Source: an uncultured Planctomycetia bacterium
GTDB taxonomy: Bacteria > Omnitrophota > Gorgyraeia > Duberdicusellales > 4484-171
Direction of reading: 5' to 3'
DNA length: 64,000 nucleotides
Assembly: GCA_964489445.1 (NCBI GenBank)
Contig: CAZAYU010000003.1
Location: forward strand, 65,172-129,171
In this document: piece by piece, positions 17,296 to 62,173 of the stretch
Position numbering within the stretch: position 1 is the first letter of the stretch
Layout of the letters: each line of letters opens with the position of its first letter
Notes under the pieces: generated by a model
Databases searched by the model: none
Told to the model about the DNA's origin: nothing
The model's input: only the letters and a program-made list of their open reading frames with translations
Made by a program: the position numbers and the translations under genes

Positions 17296-17745
17296 ATGGG
17301 TAACTTTTGGGGGGAGCTTTCACGAAATAAGACATTTTGGGTTGTTATTTTAAGCGGAGTTTTTGCTCAGGTAATAAAAATAGTCTTAGGGGCAATAAAA
17401 GAAAGAAGGTTTAATTTTTATTGGCTGCTGGGAACCGGAGGAATGCCATCATCGCATAGCGCAGCAGTGACTTCTTTTGCTATTTGTATGGGAAAAGAGT
17501 ATGGATTTTATTCACCGTTGTTTGCGCTGGGAACATTATTTGCTTTAATTACCATGTTTGATGCACAAACCTGGAGGCGTTCAATTGGCTTTCAGGCGAA
17601 AGTGTTGAATAGGATAGTGGAAGATTTACAGGAAAGGAAAAAAATAAAAGAAGACCGGCTGAAAGAATTAGTTGGGCATACTCCAGTAGAAGTTCTTTTA
17701 GGAGCATTACTGGGGGCAGCAATTACGTTTTTGTTTTATCCTTGA
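17296..17745 (+). CDS. divergent PAP2 / acid-phosphatase-vanadium-haloperoxidase-related membrane protein (YuiD/DUF212 family)
   Basis: 'MPSSHSAAVTSFA...FDAQTWRRSIG' hallmark of the DUF212 family. Confidence 0.75.
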   Translation: MGNFWGELSRNKTFWVVILSGVFAQVIKIVLGAIKERRFNFYWLLGTGGMPSSHSAAVTSFAICMGKEYGFYSPLFALGTLFALITMFDAQTWRRSIGFQAKVLNRIVEDLQERKKIKEDRLKELVGHTPVEVLLGALLGAAITFLFYP

Positions 17746-17773
17746 AGGTAATTATTTAAAACCAGGGAGAGTT

Positions 17774-18601
17774 ATGAAAAGGAATCAAATCTTTATTCTT
17801 TTAGGGGCAATACTTTTTGTGGTTTTAATCGCAGTGGGATTGTTGCCGAAAAATGAAAAAAAAGAAAAAGAAATTTTTATAAAATTGTCTACTAAAGAAG
17901 CAGAAATTGCTTTTGACAATGGCGAGCTTATTAAATCAAAACAATTGTATCAAAAAGCGATTGAGGAGGAACAGGATTTAGAAAACTTAAAAAAGATGCA
18001 AAAGGCTATCCAAGATATAAATATGGAAATTATTTTTTCTTCCTGTATTGACGAATGTAGCAAAATGTACGTTGTAAAACCCAATGATTTTTTAGGGAGA
18101 ATTGCTAAACGATTTGGCACAACTGTAGGATTAATTAAAAAATCTAATGGTTTAAAGTCAGATATTATTCGTCCAGGGCAAAAACTAAAAATTAGTATTT
18201 GTAAGTTTTCGATTTTAGTAGATAAATCGCAAAATTTATTGTTCTTAAAAAGCAACGAAGAAATACTTAAAACTTACCTTGTATCTACCGGAAAAGACAA
18301 CACCACTCCAATAGGGACATTTAAAATAAATCGAAATAAACTTAAAAACCCTACATGGCATAAAACAGGTGCAATTATTCCTCCGGATAGCCCGGATAAT
18401 ATTCTAGGGTCAAGGTGGATGGGAATTTCTGGAATAGATAGCAATGGAGCAGAAATTGTTGGCTACGGAATACATGGGACTACTAAACCTAAAGAATTGG
18501 GACAGCAAGTTACTTTAGGTTGTGTTCGAATGGAAAATAAAGATGTTGAGGAGTTGTTTGATATTATTCCGATAGGAGCAGAGGTTGTTATTATTGATTA
18601 A
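17774..18601 (+). CDS. L,D-transpeptidase with LysM domain
   Basis: LysM 'YVVKPNDFLGRIAKRFGTTVGLIKKSNGL', then a YkuD catalytic domain 'GIHGT...TLGCVRM' (His/Cys). Confidence 0.8.
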   Translation: MKRNQIFILLGAILFVVLIAVGLLPKNEKKEKEIFIKLSTKEAEIAFDNGELIKSKQLYQKAIEEEQDLENLKKMQKAIQDINMEIIFSSCIDECSKMYVVKPNDFLGRIAKRFGTTVGLIKKSNGLKSDIIRPGQKLKISICKFSILVDKSQNLLFLKSNEEILKTYLVSTGKDNTTPIGTFKINRNKLKNPTWHKTGAIIPPDSPDNILGSRWMGISGIDSNGAEIVGYGIHGTTKPKELGQQVTLGCVRMENKDVEELFDIIPIGAEVVIID

Positions 18602-18638
18602 AATGTAAAAAATAATTACCAAAAAATTAGAGGACATA

Positions 18639-19619
18639 ATGAAACAAGTTTGGGATTTTGAGAAACCGATAATTGAGCTTACAAATAAGATAGAAGGATT
18701 GAAGAAATTTTCTTTAGACAAGAAAATAAATCTTTCTCTGGAAGTAAGTAATTTAGAAGAGAAATTAAAAATACTTAAAAAAGAAATTTATTCTAGCTTA
18801 ACTCCTTGGCAAAAAGTGCAAATTTCCCGTCATTCTAATCGGCCAACTACATTAGATTATATCAAATTAATAATGACTGATTTTGTTCCTTTGGCTGGAG
18901 ATAGGCTTTACGGGGAAGATAAAGCCCTGGTTTGTGGTTTTGCTATGTTAGAAGGGCAAAAAATTGTTGTTGTAGGACATCAAAAAGGAAAAGACACTAA
19001 AGAAAATATTAAGCGTAATTTTGGTTGTGCTCATCCTGAAGGTTATCGAAAAGCAATGCGTATTATGAGGCTGGGGCAACGATTTAAATTACCAGTAATT
19101 TGCTTAATTGATACTCCAGGAGCTTATCCGGGGGTAGGCGCTGAAGAAAGAGGACAGGCTCAAGCAATTGCTGAGAATATTCGAGATATGTTTTCTTTAC
19201 GAACACCAATAGTAGTTACTGTGATTGGTGAAGGAGGAAGCGGAGGCGCACTGGGTGTTGGTGTAGGTGACAAGGTGCTCATCTTGGAGTATGCTTATTA
19301 CTCAGTAATTTCTCCCGAAGGGTGTGCGGCAATATTATGGAAAGATGCTGGAAAAAGAGAAGAAGCTGCTCGAGTGTTAAAATTAACAGCGCCGGACCTC
19401 TTGCAACTAGGGATTGTAGATGAAATTATTACGGAAGCAGAAGGAGGAGCCCATTGGGGACATCAGCAGACAGCGAATAATTTGAAAAAAGCTTTAGTAA
19501 CAAGATTAAACGAACTTTCCCAATTTTCTTTAGATGAGTTATTGAATAGACGCTATCAACGGTATAGAAAAATGGGGTCATTTAGTGAAATCCTTCCCGG
19601 TTCTGCTCTAAAAGAATAA
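18639..19619 (+). CDS. accA: acetyl-CoA carboxylase carboxyltransferase subunit alpha
   Basis: Full-length AccA: 'LDFEKPI' start, 'GFAMLEGQKIVVVGHQKG', 'IDTPGAYPGVGAEERGQA'. Confidence 0.9.
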   Translation: MKQVWDFEKPIIELTNKIEGLKKFSLDKKINLSLEVSNLEEKLKILKKEIYSSLTPWQKVQISRHSNRPTTLDYIKLIMTDFVPLAGDRLYGEDKALVCGFAMLEGQKIVVVGHQKGKDTKENIKRNFGCAHPEGYRKAMRIMRLGQRFKLPVICLIDTPGAYPGVGAEERGQAQAIAENIRDMFSLRTPIVVTVIGEGGSGGALGVGVGDKVLILEYAYYSVISPEGCAAILWKDAGKREEAARVLKLTAPDLLQLGIVDEIITEAEGGAHWGHQQTANNLKKALVTRLNELSQFSLDELLNRRYQRYRKMGSFSEILPGSALKE

Positions 19620-19625
19620 AAAAGG

Positions 19626-20168
19626 ATGCGTATCCAAAAACTGATAATTTTAGGAATCCTTAAGGAAGGGCCAAGGCACGGATACGAGATCAAAAAAATA
19701 ATCAATACCAAATTAGGAGTGTTTACTTCTCTTGACAACAAGTCAATATACTACCCGCTAAAGATCATGGAAAAGGGAGGGTTTATCAAGCGAAAAACCA
19801 TTCAAAATCCAGGAAGTTTATTGAGGTATGAGTATTCGATTACACCCCAAGGGGAAAAGGAATTTCTATCTCTCGCGATGAAGGCTTTACTTTCTCAGAA
19901 AAGGCCGTTTATTGACATTGATATTCCTTTATATTTTTTACCTTGCTTAGGCAAAAAAGAAGTTTTAGCTAGATTACGCTTACGGAAAAGATTTCTAGAG
20001 AAGGTTAAGCTGTGGCTAGAAGAAAATATAAATACAGCCAGTAAGTTTCCTGAACATCAACAGCTTCTTTTAAAACATCATTTAAATTTGGCAAGTGTAG
20101 AAGAACGCTTTGTTGACGAAATCATTACAATTGTCAAAAATCAACAACAATCAAAGATAAGTAGTTAA
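19626..20168 (+). CDS. PadR family transcriptional regulator
   Basis: 'ILGILKEGPRHGYEIKKII...SIYYPLKIMEKGGFI' PadR winged-helix signature. Confidence 0.75.
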   Translation: MRIQKLIILGILKEGPRHGYEIKKIINTKLGVFTSLDNKSIYYPLKIMEKGGFIKRKTIQNPGSLLRYEYSITPQGEKEFLSLAMKALLSQKRPFIDIDIPLYFLPCLGKKEVLARLRLRKRFLEKVKLWLEENINTASKFPEHQQLLLKHHLNLASVEERFVDEIITIVKNQQQSKISS

Positions 20169-20270
20169 CACAGCCCGTTAAGATGTTGGGGCCTAGGCAC
20201 TTAAGAATTACTATCCATGTTGAAAAAGATCGTTATAAATGGTAATCTTTTATTGGGGGGCAAATGTAAA

Positions 20271-20669
20271 ATGGCTCAAAATAAATGCCGATTAGGAAAA
20301 AAACTTCCTAAATATTTTCGAGGGTTTACGTTAATTGAAGTAATGATTTCTGTTGCTATTTTAACAGTAGTTGTTACTAGCTTGCTAATGTCTATAGTGT
20401 CTTGTGTGATGTTAAACCAGGCTAGCAGCAATTTAATAGTTGCCGCTAGCGATGCGCAAGATATCTTAGAGGATATAAAGAGCCTGCCAAACATTTATAA
20501 CGATATAGATAGTTATTTGCCACCAGGACTAAATAGTTTAACTAATGAAACGGTTAGTGTTAATGTCCTTCAAGTAAGCGAAGGATTAAAAGAGGTAACA
20601 GTTAATGTTGAGTGGGTGGATAAACAAAGGCAAAATAGTTTTCTGTTAACAACAAGGATTAACCGATAG
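20271..20669 (+). CDS. type IV minor pilin / pseudopilin (prepilin-type N-terminal methylation domain)
   Basis: 'RG|FTLIEVMISVAIL' class III signal with Glu+5. ATG at 20271 with a GGGGGG RBS; the track ORF starts at 20217. Confidence 0.65.
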   Translation: MAQNKCRLGKKLPKYFRGFTLIEVMISVAILTVVVTSLLMSIVSCVMLNQASSNLIVAASDAQDILEDIKSLPNIYNDIDSYLPPGLNSLTNETVSVNVLQVSEGLKEVTVNVEWVDKQRQNSFLLTTRINR

Positions 20670-20670
20670 C

Positions 20671-21273
20671 ATGAAAAGCGTTAATAAGAATAAAAAAAAA
20701 TATCGGATAAGGCGCACCAAAAGCTTAACTCTTGTTGAAACTTTGTTGGCGGTTTCAATTTTTATGGTCGTTCTTATGGGGTTTATGGCTAGCTTGAGTT
20801 TAGGCGAGGTATTCTTTCCTTTAAACTCAGCTAATGTAGATATGAGATCAAATGTTAGAGTAGCTATAAATTGGATTGTAAAAGATGCCAGACAGGCAGT
20901 AAATTGGGATATTGCCAATAATAATCCAGGAAGTTCTCATCTTAAGTTTCGTCGAGTCAACGGGTTAAACATTGACACAGGAGAATATTTACTGGATGAA
21001 GATTATATTGAGTACAATTATGATGCCAGTTCTTTTAAAATTGTTCGGAATTTAGTCAATTCTGAGGGAAATATTATCCGCTCTTGGGAATTTAATAATA
21101 TTAACCAAGCGCCTTTTTATACTCAACATAATGAAGAAGTTCAAGAATTTAATGAGAATTCATTTAGGGACAACGGAAAATTAATTGTGATAATCTCGGG
21201 GCAAAAAGAAATTAGAGGAGAAATGAACGCAGATTTTTCTCTAAGATCGGATGTAAAGGTGAGAAATGAATAA
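20671..21273 (+). CDS. minor pilin-like protein (non-canonical prepilin N-terminus)
   Basis: 'KSLTLVETLLAVSIFMVVL' hydrophobic pilin-like helix with Glu+5-like spacing but no Gly at −1. Confidence 0.45.
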   Translation: MKSVNKNKKKYRIRRTKSLTLVETLLAVSIFMVVLMGFMASLSLGEVFFPLNSANVDMRSNVRVAINWIVKDARQAVNWDIANNNPGSSHLKFRRVNGLNIDTGEYLLDEDYIEYNYDASSFKIVRNLVNSEGNIIRSWEFNNINQAPFYTQHNEEVQEFNENSFRDNGKLIVIISGQKEIRGEMNADFSLRSDVKVRNE

Positions 21274-22126
21274 AAAAGGATTTGCTTTAGTTGTAAGCTT
21301 GCTTACAGTATTGGCACTAAGTATTTTACTGGCCGGATTTTTTTTAAAAAGTATAAATGAAAAACATCTTGCTGAGAGATATGCTAATAGCATAAAAGCT
21401 TTTTGGTTGGCCGAAGCTGGAATTGCTGAAGGGATAAACAATTTACCTGGTAATGTTTCTAACTGTTTACAAGATGGATATTGCTATAGTGTTTTAGTTG
21501 TAAAGTTATCCGATGAGTACTACCAAATAAATTCGATAGGCACGGTTTCTTTGGCTTCTGGTGAGAAAGCAGAAAAAGAATTACAAGTAATTGTAAAAGT
21601 AAACCGTCCAGATTCTTCTAATTTTTCGCACGCAATAGAAACAACCGGCGAGCTACAAACGAGAGGAAGAGCGTACACGATTAACGGCACAATCAACGAG
21701 GAAGCTGCTTTAAATTTTGCTGATTTATTTGAATGTAGCAAAGAGGAGATGGAGTCAGCAGCTACTTACCTCTACGATGATGTTTTGCCAGAGCCAATTA
21801 ATGGAATAACGTGGGTGAATACAACTGATGGCAATGAATTAACAGTTGCTGGAAATATACAGGGTAGCGGAATTTTAGTTATTGCTGGCGACGTACACTT
21901 TTCCGGAACAATTGATATTGATGGTATAGTATATGTTATTGGAAAGCTAAGAATGTCTGGAACACCAACAATCAATGGAGCAATATTAGCTGAAAGCCAA
22001 GCGGAGGTTGATACTAGAATAGTCGGGCACGTTACTATTAATTATAATCCCGATACAATCAGTAGCGCTTTAATTTCTTTACAGGGGATGTCGTCAGAAG
22101 TTGTTTCTTGGCAAGAGGCCGAATAA
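21266..22126 (+). CDS. PilX-like type IV minor pilin
   Basis: 'KKGFALVVSLLTVLALSILL' PilX_N-type N-terminus. Confidence 0.5.
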   Translation: MNKKGFALVVSLLTVLALSILLAGFFLKSINEKHLAERYANSIKAFWLAEAGIAEGINNLPGNVSNCLQDGYCYSVLVVKLSDEYYQINSIGTVSLASGEKAEKELQVIVKVNRPDSSNFSHAIETTGELQTRGRAYTINGTINEEAALNFADLFECSKEEMESAATYLYDDVLPEPINGITWVNTTDGNELTVAGNIQGSGILVIAGDVHFSGTIDIDGIVYVIGKLRMSGTPTINGAILAESQAEVDTRIVGHVTINYNPDTISSALISLQGMSSEVVSWQEAE

Positions 22127-22311
22127 GTGAATGCAGGATGATTGTTTAATAAATTTTGTCCAACCCAGAAAGAGTTAATTTAAAAAAGACCGGCAATTGA
22201 CACTGATTATAAAAGATGATACCATTTATTAATGCAATATCTTAAAATTGCTTGATAGCCATAGGCTTACAATAACAATATTTCTTTATAATTTAAAAGG
22301 GAAGGGGAAAA

Positions 22312-23625
22312 ATGAATAAAAATAATTCTTTATCCAATCTAAGCTTAAAGCGAAGAATGTGGATTGCTATCTCATTAATCACTGTGCTTCCTTTGATTAT
22401 TTTTTTCTATTATGTCTATGGTTATGACATTTCCTTTTGGGCTACAGCAATTTTGGGGACAATTGTTTTTTTGGGTTGGTGGATAGTGTTTGAAGTATTT
22501 TCTTCCATTGTGGGCATGTGTACTCGTTCTCGCATTGCCTTGGGAAGAATTGGCGAAGAGGTTCCTTCAGCTTCTGATGAAGTGCAAAATTTAGAGAGTA
22601 TTATCAACTTGCTTTCCGATAAAGTTAAAGATAGTTTTAGCCAGCTAAAAGATTTTACCCGAATGACTGGAGAATTAAATAAAGAAGTGTCAAAAAAGGT
22701 GCTTATACTTTCCACGGTTCTCCAAGCTAATGACCTATTTTCAAAAGAGACTCCTGCTGAAGAAGTTATAAAATTTCTTGCTAATCACCTAAAAGAGTTA
22801 ATGGAAAACAAAGTTTGTTTTTGTAGTTTAAAAGAAAGTCTTCTTGAAGGGTTGAGAGTGGTTGCTTGCGAAGGGATTTCTTCTGCCAAAGTTAAAGAGT
22901 TTGGAGAAGGAAAGGATAGTGAAATACCGCGAATAGGCAAGATAATAGTAGTGGATAACTACAGTAAACCAGCTAAATATTTATCTTGGGCGAAAGAATT
23001 AGGTCTTAATAATTTAGCTATTTCTCCCATAATTTCTAGAGGGCAAATTGTAGGCATTGTAGGTATTGGGAATAAAAAAGATAACTTTTCTTTCGGAAAA
23101 GATGATCTAGATGTTTTAAATCTGTTTAGTCAAAATGTCACTTTAATTTGGGAGCACCAACGCCTTTCTTCTAAAATTGAAGAGCTGGAGGTATTAGATC
23201 ATTTAACTGGATTGTACAATGAAAAAATGATTAGTAAGAGATTGGATGAAGAAATCAAAAGGGCTACCGCCTACCAGCGTCCTTGTGGTTTTATTTCGGT
23301 TAAAGTTGTAAATTATAAAGATTTCCAAAAAAAATCAGGACAAATTGAAGCTGAAAGAAATCTAAAAATAATAGCCAAGAATCTGAAGAAATGCTTAAGA
23401 CCGATTGATATGGGCGGAAGAATATCTCCGGATGCGCTAGGAGCTATCTTGATAGAAAAAAATAAACGGCAGTCTCAAGAAATAGCTAGTAGCCTAGACA
23501 GTCTGTTAAAGAAGGGGTGTTCTGAAGAAATTGAATTATTGTTTTCTGTTGCAGAAAGCCCCATTGATGGAATTTCTGCAACAGAGCTGTTATCGTTCGT
23601 TCGGAAGCAGAAAAAAAATAAATAA
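22312..23625 (+). CDS. membrane signalling protein: 2 TM + GAF + degenerate GGDEF (GGRIS) with an RxxD I-site-like motif
   Basis: Two N-terminal TM helices and a GAF-like middle. The C-terminal 'DHLTGLYNE...LRPIDMGGRISPDALGAILIE' is a GGDEF fold with a dead active site and a retained RPID motif. Confidence 0.6.
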   Translation: MNKNNSLSNLSLKRRMWIAISLITVLPLIIFFYYVYGYDISFWATAILGTIVFLGWWIVFEVFSSIVGMCTRSRIALGRIGEEVPSASDEVQNLESIINLLSDKVKDSFSQLKDFTRMTGELNKEVSKKVLILSTVLQANDLFSKETPAEEVIKFLANHLKELMENKVCFCSLKESLLEGLRVVACEGISSAKVKEFGEGKDSEIPRIGKIIVVDNYSKPAKYLSWAKELGLNNLAISPIISRGQIVGIVGIGNKKDNFSFGKDDLDVLNLFSQNVTLIWEHQRLSSKIEELEVLDHLTGLYNEKMISKRLDEEIKRATAYQRPCGFISVKVVNYKDFQKKSGQIEAERNLKIIAKNLKKCLRPIDMGGRISPDALGAILIEKNKRQSQEIASSLDSLLKKGCSEEIELLFSVAESPIDGISATELLSFVRKQKKNK

Positions 23626-23628
23626 AAA

Positions 23629-24066
23629 ATGGAACCTAAAAGAAAAATTACTAAATTTCTAGGAGAGATTTTAGTAGAGAGGGGAGTCATTAACAATGCT
23701 CAGTTAAAAAAAGCTTTAGAAACCCAGAAACATGGAGAGGGGCTCATTGGAGAAGTAATTGTTGAGCTGGGATTTGCTAAAGAGGATGATATTGCTCATT
23801 GTTTGTCTTTGCAGTTTGGCTACCCTTATCTTCCTCTAGAAAACTATGAAATATCAGCAGAAATTGTAAAAATTATACCGCGCAAGGTTTGTGAATACTA
23901 TTGTTTGATTCCTATAGACAAAATAGGAGGAACGCTAACAATTGCTATGTCAAATCCTTTAAATGTGCAAGCGGTCGAAGATTTAGAAGATGTTGCTGAG
24001 TGTGATATCCAAATATTTGTGAGTACTCCTTCCGGAATCCGTAGCAGTATTAAAAAATTCTATTAA
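23629..24066 (+). CDS. stand-alone T2SSE_N / MshEN domain protein (putative c-di-GMP receptor)
   Basis: 'FLGEILVERGVINNAQLKKALETQ' matches the 24-residue MshEN motif RLGxxLxxxGxIxxxQLxxALxxQ. The rest is a GspE_N fold. 145 aa. Confidence 0.65.
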   Translation: MEPKRKITKFLGEILVERGVINNAQLKKALETQKHGEGLIGEVIVELGFAKEDDIAHCLSLQFGYPYLPLENYEISAEIVKIIPRKVCEYYCLIPIDKIGGTLTIAMSNPLNVQAVEDLEDVAECDIQIFVSTPSGIRSSIKKFY

Positions 24067-24068
24067 AA

Positions 24069-25808
24069 ATGAACAAGAACGAACATAGTTCACTTAATAA
24101 TAGTGAAACATCATTAAGAGGGTTTTCTGGATATCTATTAAAAAAAGGAGCTTTGTCTAAAGAGGAACTAGAAAGAGCCCTGACTACGCAAAAAAGAGAA
24201 AGAGAGTCTTTAGTAGGAATCATAGTTAAAATGGGATTTATCAAGGAAGAAATATTGCTAAATCTTCTTTCTGGCTATCTTTCTGTCCCGCCGGTTAGAG
24301 TTTTGAATTTAGATATCCCTAAGCAGATTTTAGGGTTGGTTCCTGAGAAAATTGCTCGCGCCTATCAAGTATTACCGGTAGGAATAATTGGCAATACATT
24401 AACCCTAGCCATGGGAGATCCATTAAATGTTTTAGCGATTGATGATATTAAAAAAATTACTAAGTGCGAAGTTAATCCGATAATTGCTCCTTTTTCTCAA
24501 ATTGCAAAAGCTATTTCTAATAACTATGCGCATGCGCCTACGGAAACAATAGAAGAAATAATTAAGGATCAGTCAGTCGATGCGTTAACTATAATTAAAG
24601 AAGGAAAGAGAGGTGTTTCTCAGGAAGAGATCTTTCGTTCAACCAAAGAAGCTCCGGTAATTAAGTTTACTAATGCTTTTCTTAGAAGAGCGGTTCATGA
24701 TAAAACATCGGACATTTTAATTGAGCCGCTAGAGAATACAAGTAGAGTGAGGTTAAGAATAGACGGTATACTAAGAGAGTTGGAGACTTTTTCTAAAAAA
24801 ATGCATCCGTTTATAGTGTCACGAATAAAAGTGCTATGTAATCTAAATATTGCTGAGCATCGCCTTCCTCAGGAAGGACGATTTCGCAGCAGAATTCTTG
24901 ATAGGGATGTAGACTTCAGAGTGTCCATATTACCTTCTAGCTTAGGAGAAAAAGTAGCGATAAGAATTCTAGACAAAACAGCTGCTATCTTAAACCTTGA
25001 TTTTTTAGGGTACGAAGATGATGTATTAAAAAAAATTAAACAGGATAGCTTAAAGGCTCATGGTTTGCTTCTTGCTTGTGGCCCTACTGGAGCAGGAAAA
25101 ACAACGGCTTTGTATTCGGTAATAAATCATATTTATAGTTCAGAAAAAAATATTGTTACAGTAGAGGATCCGATAGAATATCAGCTAAGAGGAATCAACC
25201 AAGTAAGCATTAATCCGGCTATTGGATTAACATTTGCTTCCGGGTTAAGATCAATATTAAGGCAGGATCCGGACATTGTAATGATTGGGGAAATTAGAGA
25301 TAAAGAAACTTCTGGGATGGCTATTAAGGCGGCTTTAACTGGTCATTTAGTTTTATCTACCTTACATACAACCACTAGCGCTGGTTCTGTTACTCGGTTG
25401 GTAAATATGGATATTGAACCTTTTTTACTTTCTTCGACGCTGTTAGGAGTTCTTGCCCAGAGATTGGTTAGAGTATTATGTCCAAAATGCAAAGAAAAAA
25501 GTAATTTAGCTGATGAGACAAGAAAAAAGTATTCACTAGAAAATAAAATTGTTATTTATAAACCAAAAGGGTGTAGTTTTTGTCAGAACATCGGATATAA
25601 AGGGAGGGTGGCTTTAAGCGAATATTTACAGATTTCTCCCTCAATCAAAAAATTAATTAACTCTTGCGTTTCAGAGGGGATTATAAAGAAAGAAGCACGC
25701 ATCGAAGGCATGCGTACTTTGCGAGAAGACGGCATTATAAAGGTAGAGAAAGGTCTAACAACGTTAGAAGAAGTAGTGAGAGTAACTGCAGCAGATGAAG
25801 ATCTATAG
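24069..25808 (+). CDS. type IV pilus assembly ATPase (PilB/GspE/MshE family) with N-terminal MshEN motif
   Basis: N-terminal 'FSGYLLKKGALSKEELERALTTQ' MshEN-type motif. Walker A GPTGAGKTT, Asp/His boxes, and a tetracysteine CPKC...CSFC. Confidence 0.9.
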   Translation: MNKNEHSSLNNSETSLRGFSGYLLKKGALSKEELERALTTQKRERESLVGIIVKMGFIKEEILLNLLSGYLSVPPVRVLNLDIPKQILGLVPEKIARAYQVLPVGIIGNTLTLAMGDPLNVLAIDDIKKITKCEVNPIIAPFSQIAKAISNNYAHAPTETIEEIIKDQSVDALTIIKEGKRGVSQEEIFRSTKEAPVIKFTNAFLRRAVHDKTSDILIEPLENTSRVRLRIDGILRELETFSKKMHPFIVSRIKVLCNLNIAEHRLPQEGRFRSRILDRDVDFRVSILPSSLGEKVAIRILDKTAAILNLDFLGYEDDVLKKIKQDSLKAHGLLLACGPTGAGKTTALYSVINHIYSSEKNIVTVEDPIEYQLRGINQVSINPAIGLTFASGLRSILRQDPDIVMIGEIRDKETSGMAIKAALTGHLVLSTLHTTTSAGSVTRLVNMDIEPFLLSSTLLGVLAQRLVRVLCPKCKEKSNLADETRKKYSLENKIVIYKPKGCSFCQNIGYKGRVALSEYLQISPSIKKLINSCVSEGIIKKEARIEGMRTLREDGIIKVEKGLTTLEEVVRVTAADEDL

Positions 25809-25869: not shown

Positions 25870-27573
25870 ATGTCAATTAAAGAAAAAATAATAAACTATA
25901 TTCAGCAGAATAAGGAAATAGACAAAAAAGTTCTTCTAGAGATTACTAAAAGCGCCAATGATTATAACGCTCTTAAAAGTGCGTTGGTTAGTAATAAGTT
26001 TATCGACGAGGAAGAATTGCTGTTATTTTTTTCTCGAGAATTAAAGATCCCTTTTTTGGATTTAAAGAAGTATAGAATTCCTGCTGAGAATAAAAATTTA
26101 TTTTCTCAAGAGATTGCTTTTAAATATGCAGTGGTTCCTATTTGCAAAATAGGAACAGTGCTTACACTGGCTATTTCTGATCCCTTAGATGTTATTGCTT
26201 GTGATGATATTAAAATTATTACTGGTGTGGATAAAGTAGATTTAGTGCTTTCTCGTAAGGAGGATATTCTTAAATCATTGAAGGTATTGCATGGAATTAC
26301 CGAAGAAATATCCAATGTTTTGGAAGAAGATTCCTTCGAAGAAGAACTAAGCGAAACCAGCGATGGCAATGATAATTTAGAGGATCTAATAAGTGAGAGT
26401 AAACATCCTCCAATTGTTCGAGCGATTGACATGATTATCTATAGCGCTTTAAAAAAGAGGGCTTCGGATATTCATATTGAGCCTTACGAAGATAAATTGT
26501 TAGTGCGTTACAGGGTTGATGGAGTACTTAGTGATGAATTTAGTTTTCCGAAAAAAAATCAACGAGCGGTAATTGCGCGAATAAAAATAATTTCTTCTTT
26601 AGATATCACGGACTCTCGTCTTCCTCAGGATGGAAGATTTAAGGTGAGGTTTGAGAATAGAGAGATTGATTTCAGAGTTTCTACACTTCCTACTCATTTT
26701 GGAGAAAAATTTGTTTTAAGAGTTTTAGACAAAGATAGCTTGTCTGCAGGATTAAAAAATTTAGGATTTTCTTCCCAACCTTTAAAATTATTTTCCGAAG
26801 CAGTAAAAGCACCTTTTGGGATTATTTTAGTTACTGGTCCGACGGGAAGCGGAAAATCGACTACTCTTTATTCAATTATCAAGAAAATTAATTCTCCGGA
26901 TAAAAATATTATTACCATTGAAGATCCGGTTGAGTATCGTTTAGAAGGGATAACCCAAATTCAGGTTAATGCAGACATCGGATTAACTTTTTCTGCAGGT
27001 TTGCACTCAGTGTTGCGTCAATCTCCAGATATTATTATGGTTGGAGAAATTAGAGATTCAGAAACAGCAGATATTGCGATTAAAGCATCCCTAACAGGAG
27101 AAGTTATTTTGTCTACCTTGCATACAAATAGTGCTGTAGGTGCAATTACTCGGTTGAGAGAAATGGGCACAGAAGCATTTCTTCTAGGGTCTTCATTGGT
27201 AGCGCTTACTGCACAAAGACTAGCTAGAAAATTGTGCCCTAAGTGTAAAGAAAAGTATAAAATGGACCGCGGTCTACTCAAGAGAATGAAATTAGAGTCT
27301 TTATTAAAAGACAAAGAAGAAAATTATTTTTATCGCTCCAAAGGATGTTCTTTTTGTGGACATAGTGGATATTATGGAAGAATTGCTATCTTAGAAGTTA
27401 TTTTACTCGATGATAAAATAAGAGAAATGGTAGCGGGAAGAAAATCAGAAGAAGAAATTATTAAATATGCTAAAAAATTTAGGTCTTTTAATTCTTTGCA
27501 AAATGACGGGTTGCTAAAGTGTGTCGACGGAATAACTTCGATAGAAGAAATTATCAGGGTAACTACTGAATAA
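25870..27573 (+). CDS. second PilB/GspE-family secretion ATPase paralog
   Basis: GspE_N-like N-terminus, Walker A GPTGSGKST, tetracysteine CPKC...CSFC. Full-length PilB-type, not PilT-type. Confidence 0.9.
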   Translation: MSIKEKIINYIQQNKEIDKKVLLEITKSANDYNALKSALVSNKFIDEEELLLFFSRELKIPFLDLKKYRIPAENKNLFSQEIAFKYAVVPICKIGTVLTLAISDPLDVIACDDIKIITGVDKVDLVLSRKEDILKSLKVLHGITEEISNVLEEDSFEEELSETSDGNDNLEDLISESKHPPIVRAIDMIIYSALKKRASDIHIEPYEDKLLVRYRVDGVLSDEFSFPKKNQRAVIARIKIISSLDITDSRLPQDGRFKVRFENREIDFRVSTLPTHFGEKFVLRVLDKDSLSAGLKNLGFSSQPLKLFSEAVKAPFGIILVTGPTGSGKSTTLYSIIKKINSPDKNIITIEDPVEYRLEGITQIQVNADIGLTFSAGLHSVLRQSPDIIMVGEIRDSETADIAIKASLTGEVILSTLHTNSAVGAITRLREMGTEAFLLGSSLVALTAQRLARKLCPKCKEKYKMDRGLLKRMKLESLLKDKEENYFYRSKGCSFCGHSGYYGRIAILEVILLDDKIREMVAGRKSEEEIIKYAKKFRSFNSLQNDGLLKCVDGITSIEEIIRVTTE

Positions 27574-27603: not shown

Positions 27604-28818
27604 ATGAAATTATTTTATTATACAGTTAAGGACAAAGCAGGAAAAGTATTAAAGGGGTCAATAGAGGCAGAAACAGATAGCGCCCTAGTTTCCCATTTTC
27701 ATGATGAAGGATGTATAGTTTTTTCAATTAAGGAAATAAAAAATCAGAAGAGGAAAATAGTAAAAGGAAAAGTTAAAACCGAAGACTTGGTAATATTTTC
27801 TAGGCAATTTACCACATTGATTGAAAGCAGCATTCCCGTGGTAGAAGCCTTAGGCATTCTCAAAGAACAAGTTGAAAATGTCTATTTTAAAAGTGTTATC
27901 GAGTTAGTTCTAAAAGATGTCAAAGAAGGGGCAAGCCTTTCATCTGCCTTAGGAAAACACAAAAAAGTATTTCCCGATATTTATTTAAGTATGGTTAAGG
28001 CCGCTGAGGTATCAGGCAGCCTAGCAGAAATCTTAGATAGAGTGTCTGTTTATCTAGAAAAAAGTAATGCGTTAGCAAAGAAAGTAATGTCTGCTTTTTA
28101 TTATCCAATTGTTATTGTTATTATGGCAATTACGATAACTTCTTTTTTGATGTTTAAAGTTATTCCTACATTTAAAGGTATCTATGATTCTTTAGGAGGA
28201 GCGTTACCTTTGCCTACACAAATACTCATTAATATTACTGATAGTCTAACTCGTAAAGAATCTATTGTAATAATTTTGGTTCTATTAATTGGAGGGTTTT
28301 TTGGTTTTAAAAAATATATTAGTACCTCTAGTGGGCGAAGAAGATATGACCGGATTATTTTAAAAATTCCAGTTTTCGGTGATTTGTTAAAAAAGATAGC
28401 TATTGCTAAATTTTCTCGAACATTTGCTACTTTAGTAAAAAGTGGAGTGTCAATAGTTAAATGTTTAGAAATTGTAGCAAATACTTCAGGAAATAAAGTA
28501 ATTGAAGATGCGGTTTTGGAATCTAAAAAGTCTATTCAAAATGGAGAGACAATATCTGCTCCTTTAGAAAAAACAGGGGTGTTTCCTCCCATGGTGACCC
28601 GGATGATCTCTGTAGGAGAAAAAAGTGGGCGTCTCGAGCACATGCTATCTAAGGTCGCTCAATTTTATGAAGAACAAACAGATGCTATGGTTGCAGGTTT
28701 AAGTAGTTTAATAGAGCCGATAATAATAGCTTTTCTGGGAATAGTAGTGGGAGGAATAGTTGTTTCTTTATTTCTACCGATATTAAAAATAACTCAACAA
28801 ATAGGGGGTATGGGGTAA
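27604..28818 (+). CDS. type IV pilus inner-membrane platform protein PilC/GspF
   Basis: Two T2SSF repeats and 3 TM helices, ~400 aa. Confidence 0.9.
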   Translation: MKLFYYTVKDKAGKVLKGSIEAETDSALVSHFHDEGCIVFSIKEIKNQKRKIVKGKVKTEDLVIFSRQFTTLIESSIPVVEALGILKEQVENVYFKSVIELVLKDVKEGASLSSALGKHKKVFPDIYLSMVKAAEVSGSLAEILDRVSVYLEKSNALAKKVMSAFYYPIVIVIMAITITSFLMFKVIPTFKGIYDSLGGALPLPTQILINITDSLTRKESIVIILVLLIGGFFGFKKYISTSSGRRRYDRIILKIPVFGDLLKKIAIAKFSRTFATLVKSGVSIVKCLEIVANTSGNKVIEDAVLESKKSIQNGETISAPLEKTGVFPPMVTRMISVGEKSGRLEHMLSKVAQFYEEQTDAMVAGLSSLIEPIIIAFLGIVVGGIVVSLFLPILKITQQIGGMG

Positions 28819-28990: not shown

Positions 28991-29416
28991 ATGAGAAAAG
29001 GTTTTACTTTAGTCGAAATCATGATCGTTGTTGCAATAATTGCATTATTGGCAGTAATTGCTATTCCTGGACTTTTAAGAATGAGAGTTAACGCTAACGA
29101 AGCTAATGCGCAGGCAACTTTGAGGACTATTTCTACCGCATGTGAAAGCTACGCAGCTGCTAATAGCGGAAATTACCCAGCTAATGTTACCACTGTTCTA
29201 TACGGAGCCAATCCTAAGTATTTAAATGAAGATTATACCTTAGCCGCAAACAATCCACGCCAAGGATACACATTTGCGTGTGGGACCATGTCTACAGCAG
29301 GGTATACTTGCACAGCAAAGCCCACTAGTTGCACAACAACAGGGACAAAGAGTTTTACAGTGACAACTGGAGGAAGTTTAGCTACCGATTCTAGCTGTAC
29401 AGCTTCTGGTTCTTAG
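28991..29416 (+). CDS. type IV pilin (major pilin candidate)
   Basis: 'MRKG|FTLVEIMIVVAIIALLAVIAIP' class III signal. GGAGG RBS. Strong promoter and terminator flank it. Confidence 0.85.
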   Translation: MRKGFTLVEIMIVVAIIALLAVIAIPGLLRMRVNANEANAQATLRTISTACESYAAANSGNYPANVTTVLYGANPKYLNEDYTLAANNPRQGYTFACGTMSTAGYTCTAKPTSCTTTGTKSFTVTTGGSLATDSSCTASGS

Positions 29417-29443
29417 AAGAGGAACCTTCCGATGTGATAATAG

Positions 29444-29477
29444 GCCGCCTTTTGGTAAACAAAAGGCGGTTTTTTTA
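29444..29477 (+). terminator. rho-independent terminator after the pilin gene
   Basis: GGCCGCCTTTTG-gtaaa-CAAAAGGCGG stem (about 11 bp) followed by a T7 run. Confidence 0.65.
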
Positions 29478-29663: not shown

Positions 29664-30122
29664 ATGTTTTTTATGGTTAGCAAAACTAAACAGAAACAAG
29701 GATTTACTATTGTTGAGCTTATGGTTACCATAGGCATTGTTATGATTCTTGCTCTTTTAGCCATTCCTCATGTTTGGCGAGTGAGAGTCAACTCTAATGA
29801 ATCTGTAGCTGTGTCGAATATAACTTCCTTGAATAGTGTATTACAATTATATTATATTAATAATAATATCTTTCCGGAAAGCCTGTCAATGCTTACTCCT
29901 CCGCAAGCCAACCCTGGATATATAGACCAGGAATTAGCCAGTGGGTCTAAGTCAGGGTATAATCTTGAGTATTCTTATACAGACGGATCTCATTTTTACA
30001 TTAATGCTAATCCCCAATCTTTAGGGCGGACAGGCAATAATTATTTTTATATAGATGAAACTGGTGTAGTAAGAAGTAATTCAGAAGAAGAGGCAGGTGT
30101 CAATGATTCCCCACTTAGATAG
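29664..30122 (+). CDS. type IV pilin paralog
   Basis: 'KQG|FTIVELMVTIGIVMILALLAIP'. GGAGGAG RBS. Confidence 0.8.
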   Translation: MFFMVSKTKQKQGFTIVELMVTIGIVMILALLAIPHVWRVRVNSNESVAVSNITSLNSVLQLYYINNNIFPESLSMLTPPQANPGYIDQELASGSKSGYNLEYSYTDGSHFYINANPQSLGRTGNNYFYIDETGVVRSNSEEEAGVNDSPLR

Positions 30123-31113
30123 AATATCTCAATTAAGCCATATGTTTAGTTTTAAAGAAAACGATTTTGTGGGCATCAACATTGGAAGTTATTACCTCAA
30201 AGGATTAGCTGTTCAAAAAGGAGAAATAGTCAATTGGTTTTTAGAACGAAATAATGGGCTTGCTCAGACCATCAAAAAGATATGGGATGAAAAAAAAATT
30301 CCCATTAAAAGGGCCAAGCTGTCTGTAAAGGGATCTTCTTGTTTAGTTCGTTGCTTTCCGTTTCCAAAAATGGAAAAGAAAAAACAAAGACAGGCTTTAT
30401 TTTATGAGATGAGTAAATTTATTCCTTTTTCTTCGGCTGATGTTTATTTTGATTTTTTTAATTTGCAAGATATTAGCTCTAAAGAAGAGTTAATTCTTTT
30501 AGCTGTGGCAAAAAAAGAATTTATCAATAGTATCTTAGAGGCTTTTGATAAAAACAATATTTCCGTTTCACAGATAAGCCTAGATAGTATTTGTTTACTA
30601 AATCTTTTTTTAAGCGTTTATAAAACTGATAAAGAAGAAAATGCGGCGATCTTAGATTTAGGATATGATTATTCAACGTTGTCAATCGTACATAAGGGAA
30701 CTCCTTTTTTAATTAGAGATGTAAAATTCAGTACCAAAGAAATTCTACAAATTGTTTCTCGAGTTAAAGATTTTTCTATAGAAGATGCAAATAAATGGAT
30801 TAACTCTTTAAAGGATAAAAGCGAATTTTTTAAATTAGTCGGTGATACTATTTCTCGTTTTTGTCAAGAGATGAAGAGCTCTTTTGATTATTTTGAAGTG
30901 AACAAAGGTGAGCATATTGATAAATTATACTTGAGTGGTGGTTTAGTTTCGGTAGAGGGAATTGAAAACATATTTTTCGAATCTTTAGACATCAAAACAG
31001 ATATTTTAAATATAGTTCCTTCGGACAAAAAGAGTTTACTTAGTAATTTTTTAAACAAGCAACAATTTTTTTTAAAAAATGATTTTACGACTGTTTTTGG
31101 ATTAGTCTCTTAA
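30097..31113 (+). CDS. type IV pilus assembly protein PilM (actin-like ATPase)
   Basis: Size, the 'INIGSYYLKG' N-terminal phosphate loop-like motif, and position before PilN/O/P/Q. Confidence 0.75.
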   Translation: MSMIPHLDRISQLSHMFSFKENDFVGINIGSYYLKGLAVQKGEIVNWFLERNNGLAQTIKKIWDEKKIPIKRAKLSVKGSSCLVRCFPFPKMEKKKQRQALFYEMSKFIPFSSADVYFDFFNLQDISSKEELILLAVAKKEFINSILEAFDKNNISVSQISLDSICLLNLFLSVYKTDKEENAAILDLGYDYSTLSIVHKGTPFLIRDVKFSTKEILQIVSRVKDFSIEDANKWINSLKDKSEFFKLVGDTISRFCQEMKSSFDYFEVNKGEHIDKLYLSGGLVSVEGIENIFFESLDIKTDILNIVPSDKKSLLSNFLNKQQFFLKNDFTTVFGLVS

Positions 31114-31135: not shown

Positions 31136-31699
31136 GTGAAGAGAATAGAAATAGATTTAAATCCCAAGAAAAAGCACACATTAAGTGAAGATTTTCAAAA
31201 AATTGTTGTGTTTGCTCCGTTAGCCATTCTGCTGGCAGCTGTTATTTTTATTTTACTGATAATTTTGCAGGTAGTTGTAGTTCAAAAACAAGCTAAATTA
31301 GGTGGGGTTAGAAAACAAGAAGAAATCTGGAGTGAAAAGGCTAGCATTGTTCAAGCTATTAGAACAGATATATTTGAATTAGAAAAAGAAAAGAATATCC
31401 TTCAAGGAGTAATTGTTTCTGAGGATGAAGTTGCAAAAATTTTAAATGATGTTTTCTTGTCAATACCTAAAAATATCTGGCTTGAGCAGTTTAATCTTGA
31501 TGAACAATCTATTAGTCTATCTGGCTGCGTTGTAAGATGGAAAGAAGATCCTTTGGGCTCTTTGGAGAAATTTATTAATTCTTTGAGAAAAAAGAAATAT
31601 TTCTCTCTAAAGTTTAAAAAGGTACATATTAAGGATTCGAAGAAGGTGAATTTTAGTGGGACTGAAGTACTAAAGTTTGATATCGAATGCAAAAAATAA
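31136..31699 (+). CDS. PilN-like bitopic membrane protein
   Basis: Single N-terminal TM and a coiled-coil. Gene order. Confidence 0.55.
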   Translation: MKRIEIDLNPKKKHTLSEDFQKIVVFAPLAILLAAVIFILLIILQVVVVQKQAKLGGVRKQEEIWSEKASIVQAIRTDIFELEKEKNILQGVIVSEDEVAKILNDVFLSIPKNIWLEQFNLDEQSISLSGCVVRWKEDPLGSLEKFINSLRKKKYFSLKFKKVHIKDSKKVNFSGTEVLKFDIECKK

Positions 31700-32229: not shown

Positions 32230-32540
32230 TTTTTATTTTTGTTGGAATTATTATTTTATTTTTTTCTGCTGTTGTCAATTATGCAGAAGAAGAGCGTGAT
32301 CCATTTCTACCACTGGTTAATAAAAATGGGTTAGTGTTAATACCTACGGAAGTTGATGTTGGAGGGTTACAATTGGGAGGAATAATTTATTCGGAAGAAT
32401 CTCCAGTTGCGATTATTAACCAAGAAGTATTAAAACGAGAAGAAGTGATAGAGGGATATGAAATTATGGCAATAAATGAAAAAGAAGTTATTTTAAAGAA
32501 AGGAAATGATGAGTTTATCTTAAAACTGGAGGATGAATGA
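32205..32540 (+). CDS. PilP-like protein
   Basis: N-terminal TM, an 'EERDPF' motif and a C-terminal beta-domain. Confidence 0.5.
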   Translation: MLLNRKKIIFIFVGIIILFFSAVVNYAEEERDPFLPLVNKNGLVLIPTEVDVGGLQLGGIIYSEESPVAIINQEVLKREEVIEGYEIMAINEKEVILKKGNDEFILKLEDE

Positions 32541-61021: not shown

Positions 61022-62173
61022 TTAGGCGAGGATTATTCTATTTTTTCCTTCTTTTTTTGCTCTATACAGAGCTTTATCTGCTTTTTTAATAAGTGGATAT
61101 TTTTCCAATGAATCTTTTGGGAAGGAAGCAACGCCGATACTTATTGTAAATTTACTTCCAGAAATATTTTTTTGTTCTATAGAGCGGCGAATTCTTTCTC
61201 CTAAAAGAAATGCTTCTTGCTTGTTATTTCCGGGTAAGATAATTGAAAATTCTTCTCCTCCATAACGGCATAAAATATCAATTTTGCGGCAATTACGTTT
61301 GAGGCGCTTACTTAACCCTTTTAAAGCGTTATCGCCTTGGATATGTCCGTGAGAGTCGTTAAATTTTTTGAAATCATCAATATCAATCATCATTATTGAA
61401 AGCGGTAATTTTGCTGATTCAGCTTTTAATAATTCTTCATCTAATCTATATTGGAAATAGCCATAATTCCAAAGGCTGGTTAGTGAATCAGTGTGAGATC
61501 TAACTAAAGTGTGTTCAAAACTTTGAGAGTTTTCAATAGCTCCGCGTGCTTGCTCAATAAACATATCGAATATTTTTATATCATCCTTAGCTAGTGGTTT
61601 TTTAGTGAAATAATTATCAACAACAATTACTCCGGCCGGCTCATTTTTAATTGTTAAAGGGTGAATTAAAAATTCTCCTAAGTTAAGCTTTTTAACAAGT
61701 AAATCGTTTCTCATTTTTTTAGCTCGACTTTTTTTAATCCAGCATGTTTGGTTTTCTTCTAAAGTGTCAAATATTAGACCACTTGTTTTATCCAGAGGAA
61801 AAGATAATGAGCGGATAAAGTCTAAAAATTTTGGACGGATTTCACTACACTTAATGTGATGATAATTTTTAATTAAACTGTGTAAATCCTTTTTTTCTTG
61901 TTCAATATGCTTCCAGATAGTTAGTGCTTCTTTATTATCCATTGCTCCGATTCCCATAAATCCGGTAATTTTTTTTCCTTTTTTATCTACTAAAAATATA
62001 CTGGCCCGATTAAATCCTAATCCTCCGTGAGCAGTTAATCCAGTTAAGATTATGTATGTTATTTCGTCAAGACGTAAAGTAGTACGCATTAATTTAGTAA
62101 GTTCATAGAAGACAGAAAGCTGGGACCGAACTTTTTTTAGTTCTTCTTGAAGGGTCTTTGAATGTTGTTTCAT
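61022..62173 (-). CDS. GAF-domain diguanylate cyclase (active GGDEF: RYGGEEF)
   Basis: GAF-like N-terminal half. An 'RYGGEEFSIILPG' active site and an RxxD I-site are present. Confidence 0.85.
   Translation of the reverse strand: MKQHSKTLQEELKKVRSQLSVFYELTKLMRTTLRLDEITYIILTGLTAHGGLGFNRASIFLVDKKGKKITGFMGIGAMDNKEALTIWKHIEQEKKDLHSLIKNYHHIKCSEIRPKFLDFIRSLSFPLDKTSGLIFDTLEENQTCWIKKSRAKKMRNDLLVKKLNLGEFLIHPLTIKNEPAGVIVVDNYFTKKPLAKDDIKIFDMFIEQARGAIENSQSFEHTLVRSHTDSLTSLWNYGYFQYRLDEELLKAESAKLPLSIMMIDIDDFKKFNDSHGHIQGDNALKGLSKRLKRNCRKIDILCRYGGEEFSIILPGNNKQEAFLLGERIRRSIEQKNISGSKFTISIGVASFPKDSLEKYPLIKKADKALYRAKKEGKNRIILA

Follow-up and report, generated by a model that had tools for sequence, protein, structure and literature searches.

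The DNA analyzed here is a stretch of 64,000 nucleotides (nt), below called the window, from an uncultured bacterium that is deposited as a member of the Planctomycetia and carries a GTDB lineage within the Omnitrophota (NCBI assembly GCA_964489445.1, contig CAZAYU010000003.1, positions 65,172 to 129,171, forward strand). Its GC content is 34%. It harbors a pilus gene cluster with five core genes, which encode a GGDEF-like membrane protein, a stand-alone MshEN/GSPII-domain protein of 145 amino acids (aa), the two assembly-type ATPases PilB1 and PilB2, and the platform protein PilC (Table 1). The MshEN domain and its ligand c-di-GMP (cyclic dimeric guanosine monophosphate) are already known, as are ATPases with multiple GSPII domains. 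What is new, as far as sequences can tell, is that across the phylum the arrangement is 'split': the sensor predicted to be competent stands apart from the motors, whose own domains have degenerated.

Table 1. Genes and sites of the pilus cluster and a diguanylate cyclase gene of the same window (positions counted from the first nucleotide of the window; ORF, open reading frame; AF2, AlphaFold2).
Feature	Position	Strand	Basis or remark
Three minor-pilin-like genes, upstream	20217..22126	+	N_methyl motif in 20217-20669; equivalents in loci L002 and L004
Promoter-like site, within the 185 nt that precede the GGDEF-like gene	22197..22225	+	TTGACA-17-TACCAT with TG
Membrane protein with GAF and degenerate GGDEF domain, ends 3 nt before the MshEN gene	22312..23625	+	PF00990 1e-15, GAF
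Stand-alone MshEN/GSPII-domain protein, 145 aa	23629..24066	+	ORF, PF05157, alignment, AF2/Foldseek
Putative c-di-GMP motif I, residues 10-33, FLGEILVERGVINNAQLKKALETQ	23656..23727	+	Gapless alignment to MshE R9-Q32
5-residue spacer KHGEG, residues 34-38	23728..23742	+	Length equals MshE spacer
Putative c-di-GMP motif II, residues 39-62, LIGEVIVELGFAKEDDIAHCLSLQ	23743..23814	+	Aligns to MshE R38-Q61
C-terminal subdomain, T2SSE_N1 fold, residues 63-145	23815..24063	+	PF05157, Foldseek, conservation
PilB1, assembly-type ATPase, 579 aa, degenerate MshEN N-terminal domain	24069..25808	+	PF00437 6e-125, PF05157 7e-18
PilB2, the other assembly-type ATPase, with N-terminal motifs degenerated further	25870..27573	+	PF00437 3e-133, PF05157 3e-14
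PilC, platform protein	27604..28818	+	PF00482 6e-61; syntenic in all loci
Two pilin genes	28991-29416, 29664-30122	+	N_methyl matches
Terminator-like hairpin directly 3' of the first pilin gene	29442-29472	+	13-bp stem and T-run
PilM	30097-31113	+	PF11104 7.5e-23
PilN	31136-31699	+	PF05137, below threshold
PilO-like protein	31687-32229	+	
Secretin PilQ	32537-34132	+	PF00263 5e-45
ExeA/MshM-like AAA_22 ATPase	34137-34934	+	Immediately behind the secretin, the arrangement of MSHA-type clusters
Small protein	34954-35421	+	Weak CdsD_C match; after the AAA_22 ATPase
Canonical diguanylate cyclase, 383 aa, RKID I-site, GGEEF active site, RKIDILCRYGGEEFSIILPG	61022..62173	-	PF00990 2.9e-43

A complete MshEN domain encoded by its own gene

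The gene of the stand-alone protein comprises 145 codons from ATG to TAA. On its 5' side, 3 nt separate it from the stop codon of the gene in front, and on its 3' side 2 nt lie between it and the ATG of pilB1. Its product matches the Pfam family PF05157 (MshEN) with 63.4 bits (cutoff 23.1, E 2e-17) over residues 63–145. A phmmer search against the PDB gave T. thermophilus PilF as the best sequence match (4e-38), followed by Geobacter PilB N1D (7e-26), M. xanthus PilB (2e-22) and V. cholerae MshE (5HTL, 3e-16). In these alignments, residues 9–145 span the complete N-terminal domains of PilB, PilF and MshE, and the end of the ORF falls exactly on the domain border. Both the PF05157 and the PDB matches are far beyond chance. 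An earlier annotation made from the letters of this stretch alone, below called the sequence-only reading, was thus right to see a genuine stand-alone MshEN domain in this ORF.

An AlphaFold2 model of the protein was built from 58 family members and reached a predicted local distance difference test value (pLDDT) of 89 and a predicted template modeling score (pTM) of 0.77. In this predicted structure, four helices (residues 11–63) precede an alpha/beta subdomain of the T2SSE_N1 type. Foldseek placed MshE in complex with c-di-GMP (5HTL) at the top of the PDB matches (template modeling score, TM, 0.82–0.85; rmsd 2.2 Å), above the holo structures of PilF GSPII-B (TM 0.73–0.79) and the non-binding PilF GSPII-A (TM 0.70). 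The C-terminal subdomain resembles EpsE-N1 as seen in the EpsE:EpsL complex 2BH1 (TM 0.73, normalised to the target), and its invariant columns comprise NPLN, AxEDLE, C125, F130 and T133. Judged from alignments and predicted fold, the 145-aa protein is a complete autonomous MshEN/GSPII domain. The cysteines C58, C92 and C125 are invariant in 118 out of 118 close homologues, C125 alone being common to PilB1.

Residues 3–67 align without a gap to MshE residues 2–66, residue n corresponding to MshE n-1. This region contains two tandem 24-residue motifs with a 5-residue spacer, equivalent to MshE 9–61. Motif I (FLGEILVERGVINNAQLKKALETQ, 23656–23727) had been pointed out in the sequence-only reading and lies where it was said to be, at residues 10–33, while motif II (LIGEVIVELGFAKEDDIAHCLSLQ, 23743–23814) was absent from that reading. 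The alignment to MshE that it had called for brings the c-di-GMP-contacting Leu, Gly and Gln positions into register without a gap. Kept in motif I are L11, G12, G19, L26, L30 and Q33 (MshE L10, G11, G18, L25, L29 and Q32), kept in motif II are I40 (MshE L39), G41, G48, I55 (MshE L54), L59 and Q62 (MshE G40, G47, L58 and Q61 for the identical residues). The guanine-stacking arginines of MshE, R9 and R38, are replaced by F10 and L39.

Conservation follows the same pattern. The six kept positions of motif I are near-invariant across the family. Among 81 orthologues, the glycines at MshE positions 11 and 40 are found in every sequence, Q32 in 77 and Q61 in 80; within motif II, L39, G41 and I55 occur in 81/81 and L59 and Q62 in 80/81, and the spacer measures 5 aa in 80/81. 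The published relaxed MshEN motif, written as a tandem regular expression with only the first motif residue left free, matches 68 of the 81 orthologues, including the window protein. The first residue of motif I does vary, being P (36), Q (35), H or R in orthologues and F in the window. Among the 118 close homologues, in which nearly every motif position and much of the C-terminal subdomain are invariant, F at position 10 is the one unusual motif feature of the window copy, most others having P. L39 fits the extended first-residue consensus R/K/L, while F10 appears neither in the extended nor in the relaxed list (R/K/P/N). In PilF GSPII-B, arginine is dispensable: K and L at these positions go along with an affinity of 6 nM, Leu thus being present at the first motif position of a tight binder, and the K167L variant reaches 2 nM; according to a proposal made for this domain, very high affinity can be predicted from a large hydrophobic residue in first place (PMC11731258). 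From the ligand positions we infer that the 145-aa protein binds c-di-GMP, its affinity likewise being predicted from the motifs.

Two neighboring ATPases with degenerate motifs

The next gene (24069–25808) does encode a PilB-type ATPase with PF00437 (6e-125) and PF05157 matches, as the sequence-only reading had it. However, that reading also credited this PilB with the MshEN consensus, which does not hold. The peptide 'FSGYLLKKGALSKEELERALTTQ', presented as a 24-residue motif, has 23 residues, and the coordinates assigned to it, 24117–24191, correspond to 25 (R17–Q41). In the correct register, motif I of PilB1 reads R-G-F-S-G-Y-L-L-K-K-G, with S at the position of the essential Gly (LG is changed to 'FS'), and motif II reads S-L-V-G-I-I-V...L-S-G-Y, with Y instead of the terminal Gln. 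Even the relaxed published pattern fails.

This degeneration extends beyond the window. Among 74 PilB1 orthologues, the G11 position is T in 52 and S in 5 but never G, the G40 position is S (36), V (24) or A (5), and the Q61 position is G (32) or Y (29). In 64 PilB2 orthologues, L or I stands for G11, R or K for G40, and E (42) for Q61. The tandem regular expression, again with a free first residue, matches 0/74 PilB1 and 0/64 PilB2 sequences. In MshE itself, the exchange G11L abolished binding and G40I weakened it 72-fold (Wang 2016 supplement, PMC5013675). PilB1 and PilB2 are therefore predicted to keep the MshEN fold, as indicated by PF05157, yet to be blind to c-di-GMP. The sole competent c-di-GMP site of the operon would then be that of the separate MshEN protein, beside two motors that cannot sense the ligand themselves.

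A recent duplication of the neighbor's N-terminus as origin of the stand-alone gene was considered and rejected: its product is only 34% identical to the PilB1 domain over 132 aa and 30% to that of PilB2, below the match to Geobacter PilB. PilB1 and PilB2 both possess an N1 domain and Zn-binding Cys motifs. Within the 64-kb window, no retraction ATPase of the PilT type was found.

Distribution and gene order

The sequence-only reading had called a free-standing MshEN protein uncommon, which is wrong for this lineage. In a search of 5.8 billion proteins, the stand-alone protein had 3187 homologues. All but three of the best 120 (117) are 142–168 aa long and 65–90% identical to it, and the named members stem from metagenome-assembled genomes of Candidatus Omnitrophota, which places the window in this phylum as well. 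In a scan of one genome per species, at least 321 species-level genomes carry a relative, and the best 80 of these are all Omnitrophota or mis-binned or mislabelled equivalents. Within the Omnitrophota, identity ranges from 57 to 90%. An exhaustive search of 50%-identity cluster representatives gave about 60 single-domain proteins of 140–200 aa among the best 150 matches, the remainder being multi-MshEN PilBs, MshEN-PilZ proteins and one MshEN-DnaA fusion.

Some homologues deviate from the simple architecture. Three of them (P0002, P0003, P0005; 200–218 aa) carry an extra N-terminal four-helix c-di-GMP bundle, giving (MshEN_N)2-T2SSE_N1, an architecture reminiscent of PilF GSPII-C with its three motifs. 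Among the distant matches P0160, P0177, P0221, P0229, P0233 and P0258, several have MshEN fused to PilZ and thereby unite c-di-GMP receptor domains of two kinds, and in P0160 MshEN is fused to a DnaA ATPase domain (Bac_DnaA, 1e-65).

ORFs were called in 83 related loci and assigned by phmmer. Of the 65 loci that extend far enough to either side, 64 show the order GGDEF-like gene, stand-alone MshEN, PilB1, PilB2, PilC. In all 81 orthologues the stand-alone gene has its own stop at the same domain border, while its distance to the PilB1 gene varies between -83 and +315 nt (median 39). The GGDEF-like gene stops within -23 to +27 nt of the MshEN start in 71/77 loci. Lineages at 46–52% identity (L086, L087) do not possess the GGDEF-like gene and retain MshEN, PilB1, PilB2 and PilC. 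For 46 loci with all five core proteins, conservation was expressed as the median identity to the window copy: 64% for the stand-alone protein, 60% for PilC, 58% for PilB2, 55% for PilB1 and 42% for the GGDEF-like protein. Within the core cluster, conservation is thus highest for the stand-alone MshEN protein and lowest for its GGDEF-like neighbor. Two loci contain a second stand-alone MshEN paralogue of 151–153 aa between PilB2 and PilC (L069:14181-14642 and L076:14027-14482) with motifs of the type L-M-G... and F/L-V/L-G....

One lineage has joined what is separate in the window. On a metagenomic contig with 62% GC, L088:8001-10298 encodes a protein of 765 aa. Its residues 9–149 are 41% identical to the stand-alone protein, as reciprocal best match, and residues 202–758 are 42% identical to PilB1 over the full PilB1 length, including the degenerate inner MshEN domain. 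Both parts are connected by a low-complexity linker of about 50 aa rich in Gly, Lys and Asn, and behind the fusion gene come another PilB and then PilC. By gene order and identity, L088 is the same operon with its first two genes fused; as a Rosetta-stone case, it is evidence that the two proteins are partners, be it physically or functionally. A fusion of MshEN to GAF-GGDEF was not seen among the C-terminally located MshEN matches, which turned out to be MshEN-PilZ proteins. An apparent PilB1-PilB2 fusion of 1173 aa (L060:7321-10842) was dismissed as an artifact of a masked N run in the stored contig.

Further c-di-GMP genes

The GGDEF-like protein upstream of the stand-alone gene was aligned to solved cyclases, which places RPID on the RxxD I-site and SPDAL on the GGDEF active site (A-site). 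The I-site is kept, and the GG(D/E)EF motif is lost. Consequently, a role of this protein as the local cyclase that feeds the sensor was rejected, since SPDAL occupies the A-site in the window clade. To judge from these motifs, the protein of the window clade is not a cyclase, but may serve as an I-site receptor. Throughout this clade, RP[IV]D I-sites come with dead A-sites (SPDAL, GPNKL...), while the protein of a divergent clade has SEID, with the I-site Arg lost, and a near-canonical G[GD][DN]EF; in the single locus L043 the motif is a true GGDEF. The states of both sites are thus reciprocal between the clades across the phylum (L006–L085), as read from the alignments.

Furthermore, about 19 loci of the divergent Omnitrophota clade (among them L044, L050, L051 and L053) and L086 (10821-11861) have a REC-HD-GYP gene (~356 aa, HHExxDGxGYP) inserted between PilB2 and PilC. 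The window does not have this gene, and the corresponding gap measures 30 nt. The canonical cyclase encoded at 61022–62173 suggests that the organism can make c-di-GMP and is probably a source of it in the same genome. An Rfam scan of the window gave a tRNA as the only match and no c-di-GMP riboswitch.

The remaining pilus genes

Downstream of PilC, the order of PilM, PilN, the PilO-like protein and PilQ is identical in L002 and L004. The strong hairpin behind the first pilin gene is of a kind typical of a highly expressed major pilin. Scans for promoters and terminators yielded site counts no higher than in shuffled sequences; what is suggestive is only this terminator and the location of the weak promoter-like candidate at 22197..22225. 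On the other side of the cluster, the genes for DUF212, a LysM/YkuD L,D-transpeptidase, AccA and PadR (17296–20168 in the window, PadR thus also lying upstream of the pilus cluster here) keep synteny with the pilus cluster even in distant Omnitrophota (L001, L002, L004, L087), where PadR and the GGDEF-like gene sometimes have a REC gene between them.

A possible sensor subunit of the pilus motor

Drawing on sequence, predicted structure and analogy, we consider it moderately probable that the stand-alone protein senses c-di-GMP as a subunit of the pilus motor that acts in trans, i.e., as part of a 'split' multi-GSPII PilB. It would bind one c-di-GMP in the mode of MshE and PilF GSPII-B, the guanines being held by triads of Leu/Ile and by backbone NH groups at G12/E13 and G41/E42, while Q33 and Q62 would hold the ribose-phosphate and F10 and L39 would stack on the bases. 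The conserved C-terminal subdomain or its surface would associate non-covalently with PilB1 and/or PilB2, or with the docking partner PilM. In this way, the second-messenger input would be supplied in trans to ATPases whose N-terminal domains have lost the motif, and the stand-alone protein together with PilB1 might amount to a functional two-GSPII PilB, such as Thermus PilF or (MshEN)2-T2SSE, distributed over two polypeptides. The GAF-GGDEF-like membrane protein, presumably translationally coupled, would probably be a second c-di-GMP-binding or scaffolding component of this module. By analogy, c-di-GMP might promote pilus assembly and adhesion; both the sign of regulation and the identity of the protein partner are suggested by comparison with known systems. 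N1 domains bind GspL/PilM homologues. The EpsE N1 domain bound to EpsL in 2BH1, recovered as a Foldseek match, is a precedent for such docking, and PilF GSPII-C is required for the stimulation of the ATPase by PilMN (PMC6325625).

That the function is tied to the neighboring ATPase is suggested by the operon position and by the natural PilB fusion in another lineage. To this extent the sequence-only reading, which had proposed a sensor, sink or competitor modulating the adjacent ATPase, points in the right direction; its variants of a pure sink or ligand competitor are unlikely, since PilB1 and PilB2 offer no competent site. The link to PilB rather than to the upstream neighbor is favored because lineages without the GGDEF-like gene keep MshEN, PilB1, PilB2 and PilC and because of the L088 fusion.

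One might go further and speculate that, throughout a phylum of bacteria with small genomes, the c-di-GMP switch of the pilus motor has become a free, diffusible 16-kDa subunit, which, once loaded with c-di-GMP, docks on one of the two 'blind' PilBs or on PilM and thereby selects the motor that engages the platform. Together with the GAF-GGDEF-like receptor, and HD-GYP in some lineages, it would form a self-contained local c-di-GMP circuit within the pilus operon. We regard this extended scenario as possible but clearly more tentative than the sensor role as such.

However, several observations weigh against a c-di-GMP sensor acting on PilB. Motif I opens with a residue other than R, K or L, namely F in the window and P or Q in most orthologues; for P there is only an indirect precedent in PilF GSPII-C, while F and Q are without precedent at this position. 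Moreover, a motif alone is no guarantee of binding: PilF GSPII-A did not bind c-di-GMP even after its consensus had been fully restored, which was ascribed to an N-cap-stabilised extra turn of helix 1 and to tight packing between the subdomains (PMC12002112). The F63/L111 pair of the stand-alone family corresponds to the PilF pair F63/L113, which mediates this packing in GSPII-A, and AlphaFold is reported to be unreliable for contacts of this type (PMC12002112). The N-cap signature of GSPII-A, in contrast, is not seen, given that position 5 is K/R (K5 in the window) instead of S/T/D, position 10 is P or F, and helix 1 of the model starts at residue 11. In the L088 fusion, the first domain is less canonical (R-T-G, with an insertion in motif II), and its ATPase part resembles PilB1 and PilB2 to the same degree. 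Finally, the tightest gene coupling of MshEN is that with the GGDEF-like gene and not with PilB1, such that the primary partner could be the GGDEF-like protein instead of PilB. Everything beyond the sequence level is inference.

Some of these points equally suit a protein that works independently of c-di-GMP, as a structural subunit or decoy. It would dock on PilM or PilC as adaptor or assembly factor, or compete with the N1 domains of PilB1 and PilB2, for instance in the choice of the motor. In conservation, its T2SSE_N1 subdomain equals or exceeds the motif region, docking is an established function of N1 domains (2BH1; PMC6325625), the family has kept the F63/L111 pair, and the near-consensus GSPII-A is a non-binder all the same. 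Yet the third-position Gly of both motifs as well as Q33 and Q62, for which ligand contact is the only known role, are near-invariant in the stand-alone protein and freely replaced in the PilB1 and PilB2 domains of the same genomes, although these domains keep the fold. In addition, the cluster repeatedly recruits c-di-GMP genes, namely those for the GGDEF-like and the REC-HD-GYP proteins. We hold a purely structural role to be unlikely, though it is the strongest competitor of the trans-acting sensor.

The close coupling to the upstream gene could also mean that the stand-alone protein is a partner of the GAF-GGDEF-like protein; together they would make up a membrane-anchored complex that receives or relays c-di-GMP, loosely comparable to PelD. 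The output would not be direct ATPase control, but, e.g., pilin export, localisation or another envelope process. The spacing between these two genes is indeed tighter than that between MshEN and PilB1, and the window clade has kept the RxxD I-site along with a dead A-site. This is difficult to reconcile with L086 and L087, where MshEN, PilB1, PilB2 and PilC persist without the GGDEF-like protein, and with the wide gap in conservation between the two proteins (64 versus 42%). The only natural fusion found joins MshEN to PilB and not to the GGDEF-like protein. Taken together, we consider this alternative improbable.

Even less can be said for a c-di-GMP sink or buffer, a small high-affinity binder that titrates free c-di-GMP near the pilus machine without specific protein contacts. 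The protein is small, soluble and single-domain, and intact motifs with hydrophobic first residues predict a high affinity. However, the 62-residue N-terminal bundle would suffice for this purpose, as the bundle alone binds in MshE and proteins consisting of MshEN_N only do exist, whereas here an extremely conserved C-terminal subdomain of 83 residues is retained. With no competent site in the adjoining PilBs to compete with, and with the domain fused to PilB in L088, such a role is very improbable.

Hardly credible is an artifact in which a sequencing error, a recent frameshift at the A-run 24052–24057 or programmed frameshifting would have severed this ORF from a PilB with two GSPII domains. 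It is true that the genes are only 2 nt apart, that the PilB1 frame is open from 24054, just past the A6 run, and that fused (MshEN)2-T2SSE proteins exist. However, a split gene was ruled out by the individual stops in 81/81 orthologues and the variable spacers, and PilB1 has a conserved N-terminus of its own.

Significance and comparison with known systems

How binding of c-di-GMP to an N-terminal MshEN/N1 domain alters the activity of PilB is an acknowledged open question. A separate putative sensor next to motif-less ATPases is a natural trans system, whose parts can be purified, mixed, titrated and mutated independently. If the proposed sensor role is true, a naturally split MshEN/PilB would thus allow the action of N1/MshEN on PilB to be dissected in trans. 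No such receptor is described in the c-di-GMP papers found for the Omnitrophota, a phylum without cultivated members, and the stand-alone MshEN protein is probably their main c-di-GMP receptor for pili. Within the collection of papers searched, there was none on a characterized stand-alone MshEN protein, on such a partner of PilB or on c-di-GMP signaling in Omnitrophota. When c-di-GMP receptors are counted across genomes, stand-alone MshEN proteins should be included, while PilB paralogues should not be scored as receptors by a Pfam match alone. For a specialist, the arrangement is unexpected but not astonishing.

Receptors of the MshEN type without an ATPase have been listed before, such as P. 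aeruginosa PA3740 (MshEN-xT2SSE_N1) and the cyanobacterial cce_1044 ((MshEN_N)2; Wang 2016 Suppl. Table 4). However, these are not located in a pilus-motor operon beside motif-less PilBs, the C-terminal subdomain of PA3740 is highly diverged, and cce_1044 has none. Among the many MshEN architectures listed by Wang et al., none is a plain MshEN protein in a pilus operon (PMC5013675 supplement).

For the upstream neighbor, PelD (mentioned in PMC12448109) offers the nearest likeness: both combine transmembrane segments, a GAF domain and a degenerate GGDEF domain with dead A-site and retained RxxD. In contrast, no specific sequence match to PelD was detected in the PDB for the protein at 22312–23625, and the output of PelD is the Pel polysaccharide, while this protein adjoins a pilus machine.

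Signal input to a pilus motor in trans has a parallel in principle in the FimX-PilZ-PilB system of Xanthomonas and Pseudomonas, where a non-binding PilB receives its signal from docking receptors (7LKM; PMC8389850). The own N-terminal domain of the Xanthomonas PilB is degenerate, and c-di-GMP input is provided there by PilZ-FimX docking on this very domain. The receptor, however, is unrelated, being a degenerate EAL protein with a PilZ adaptor, and no PilZ or FimX homologue was seen in the pilus cluster of the window.

With V. cholerae MshE (5HTL; Wang et al., 2016, PMC5013675), the stand-alone protein shares the two-subdomain fold, the gapless 53-residue site with its 5-aa spacer and Leu/Gly/Gln positions, and a basic N-terminal patch. 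It differs in the exchange of R9 and R38 for F and L and of D108 for N109, and above all in being a separate polypeptide, while the MshEN domain of MshE is covalently joined to its T2SSE ATPase. The (MshEN)2-T2SSE ATPases (Wang 2016 Suppl. Table 4; P0130/L088) come close from the other side, given that L088 has the gene order of the window with the first two genes fused; its differences are the fusion itself, a GC content of 62% and a distal domain that is farther from the motif (R-T-G, motif II insertion).

A further related system is Thermus PilF with its domains GSPII-A, -B and -C (8PDK, 9G1W, 6F8L; PMC11731258, PMC12002112), a pilus ATPase with several GSPII domains, only some of which bind c-di-GMP. 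GSPII-B has K/L instead of Arg at 6 nM affinity, and motif II of GSPII-C starts with P, as motif I does in most stand-alone orthologues. In PilF all domains reside on one chain, whereas here the domain predicted to be competent is detached by a stop after residue 145, and several GSPII domains and the ATPase are thus not united on one polypeptide. The stand-alone protein may work like part of a split multi-GSPII ATPase, while by architecture it is not a member of this group.

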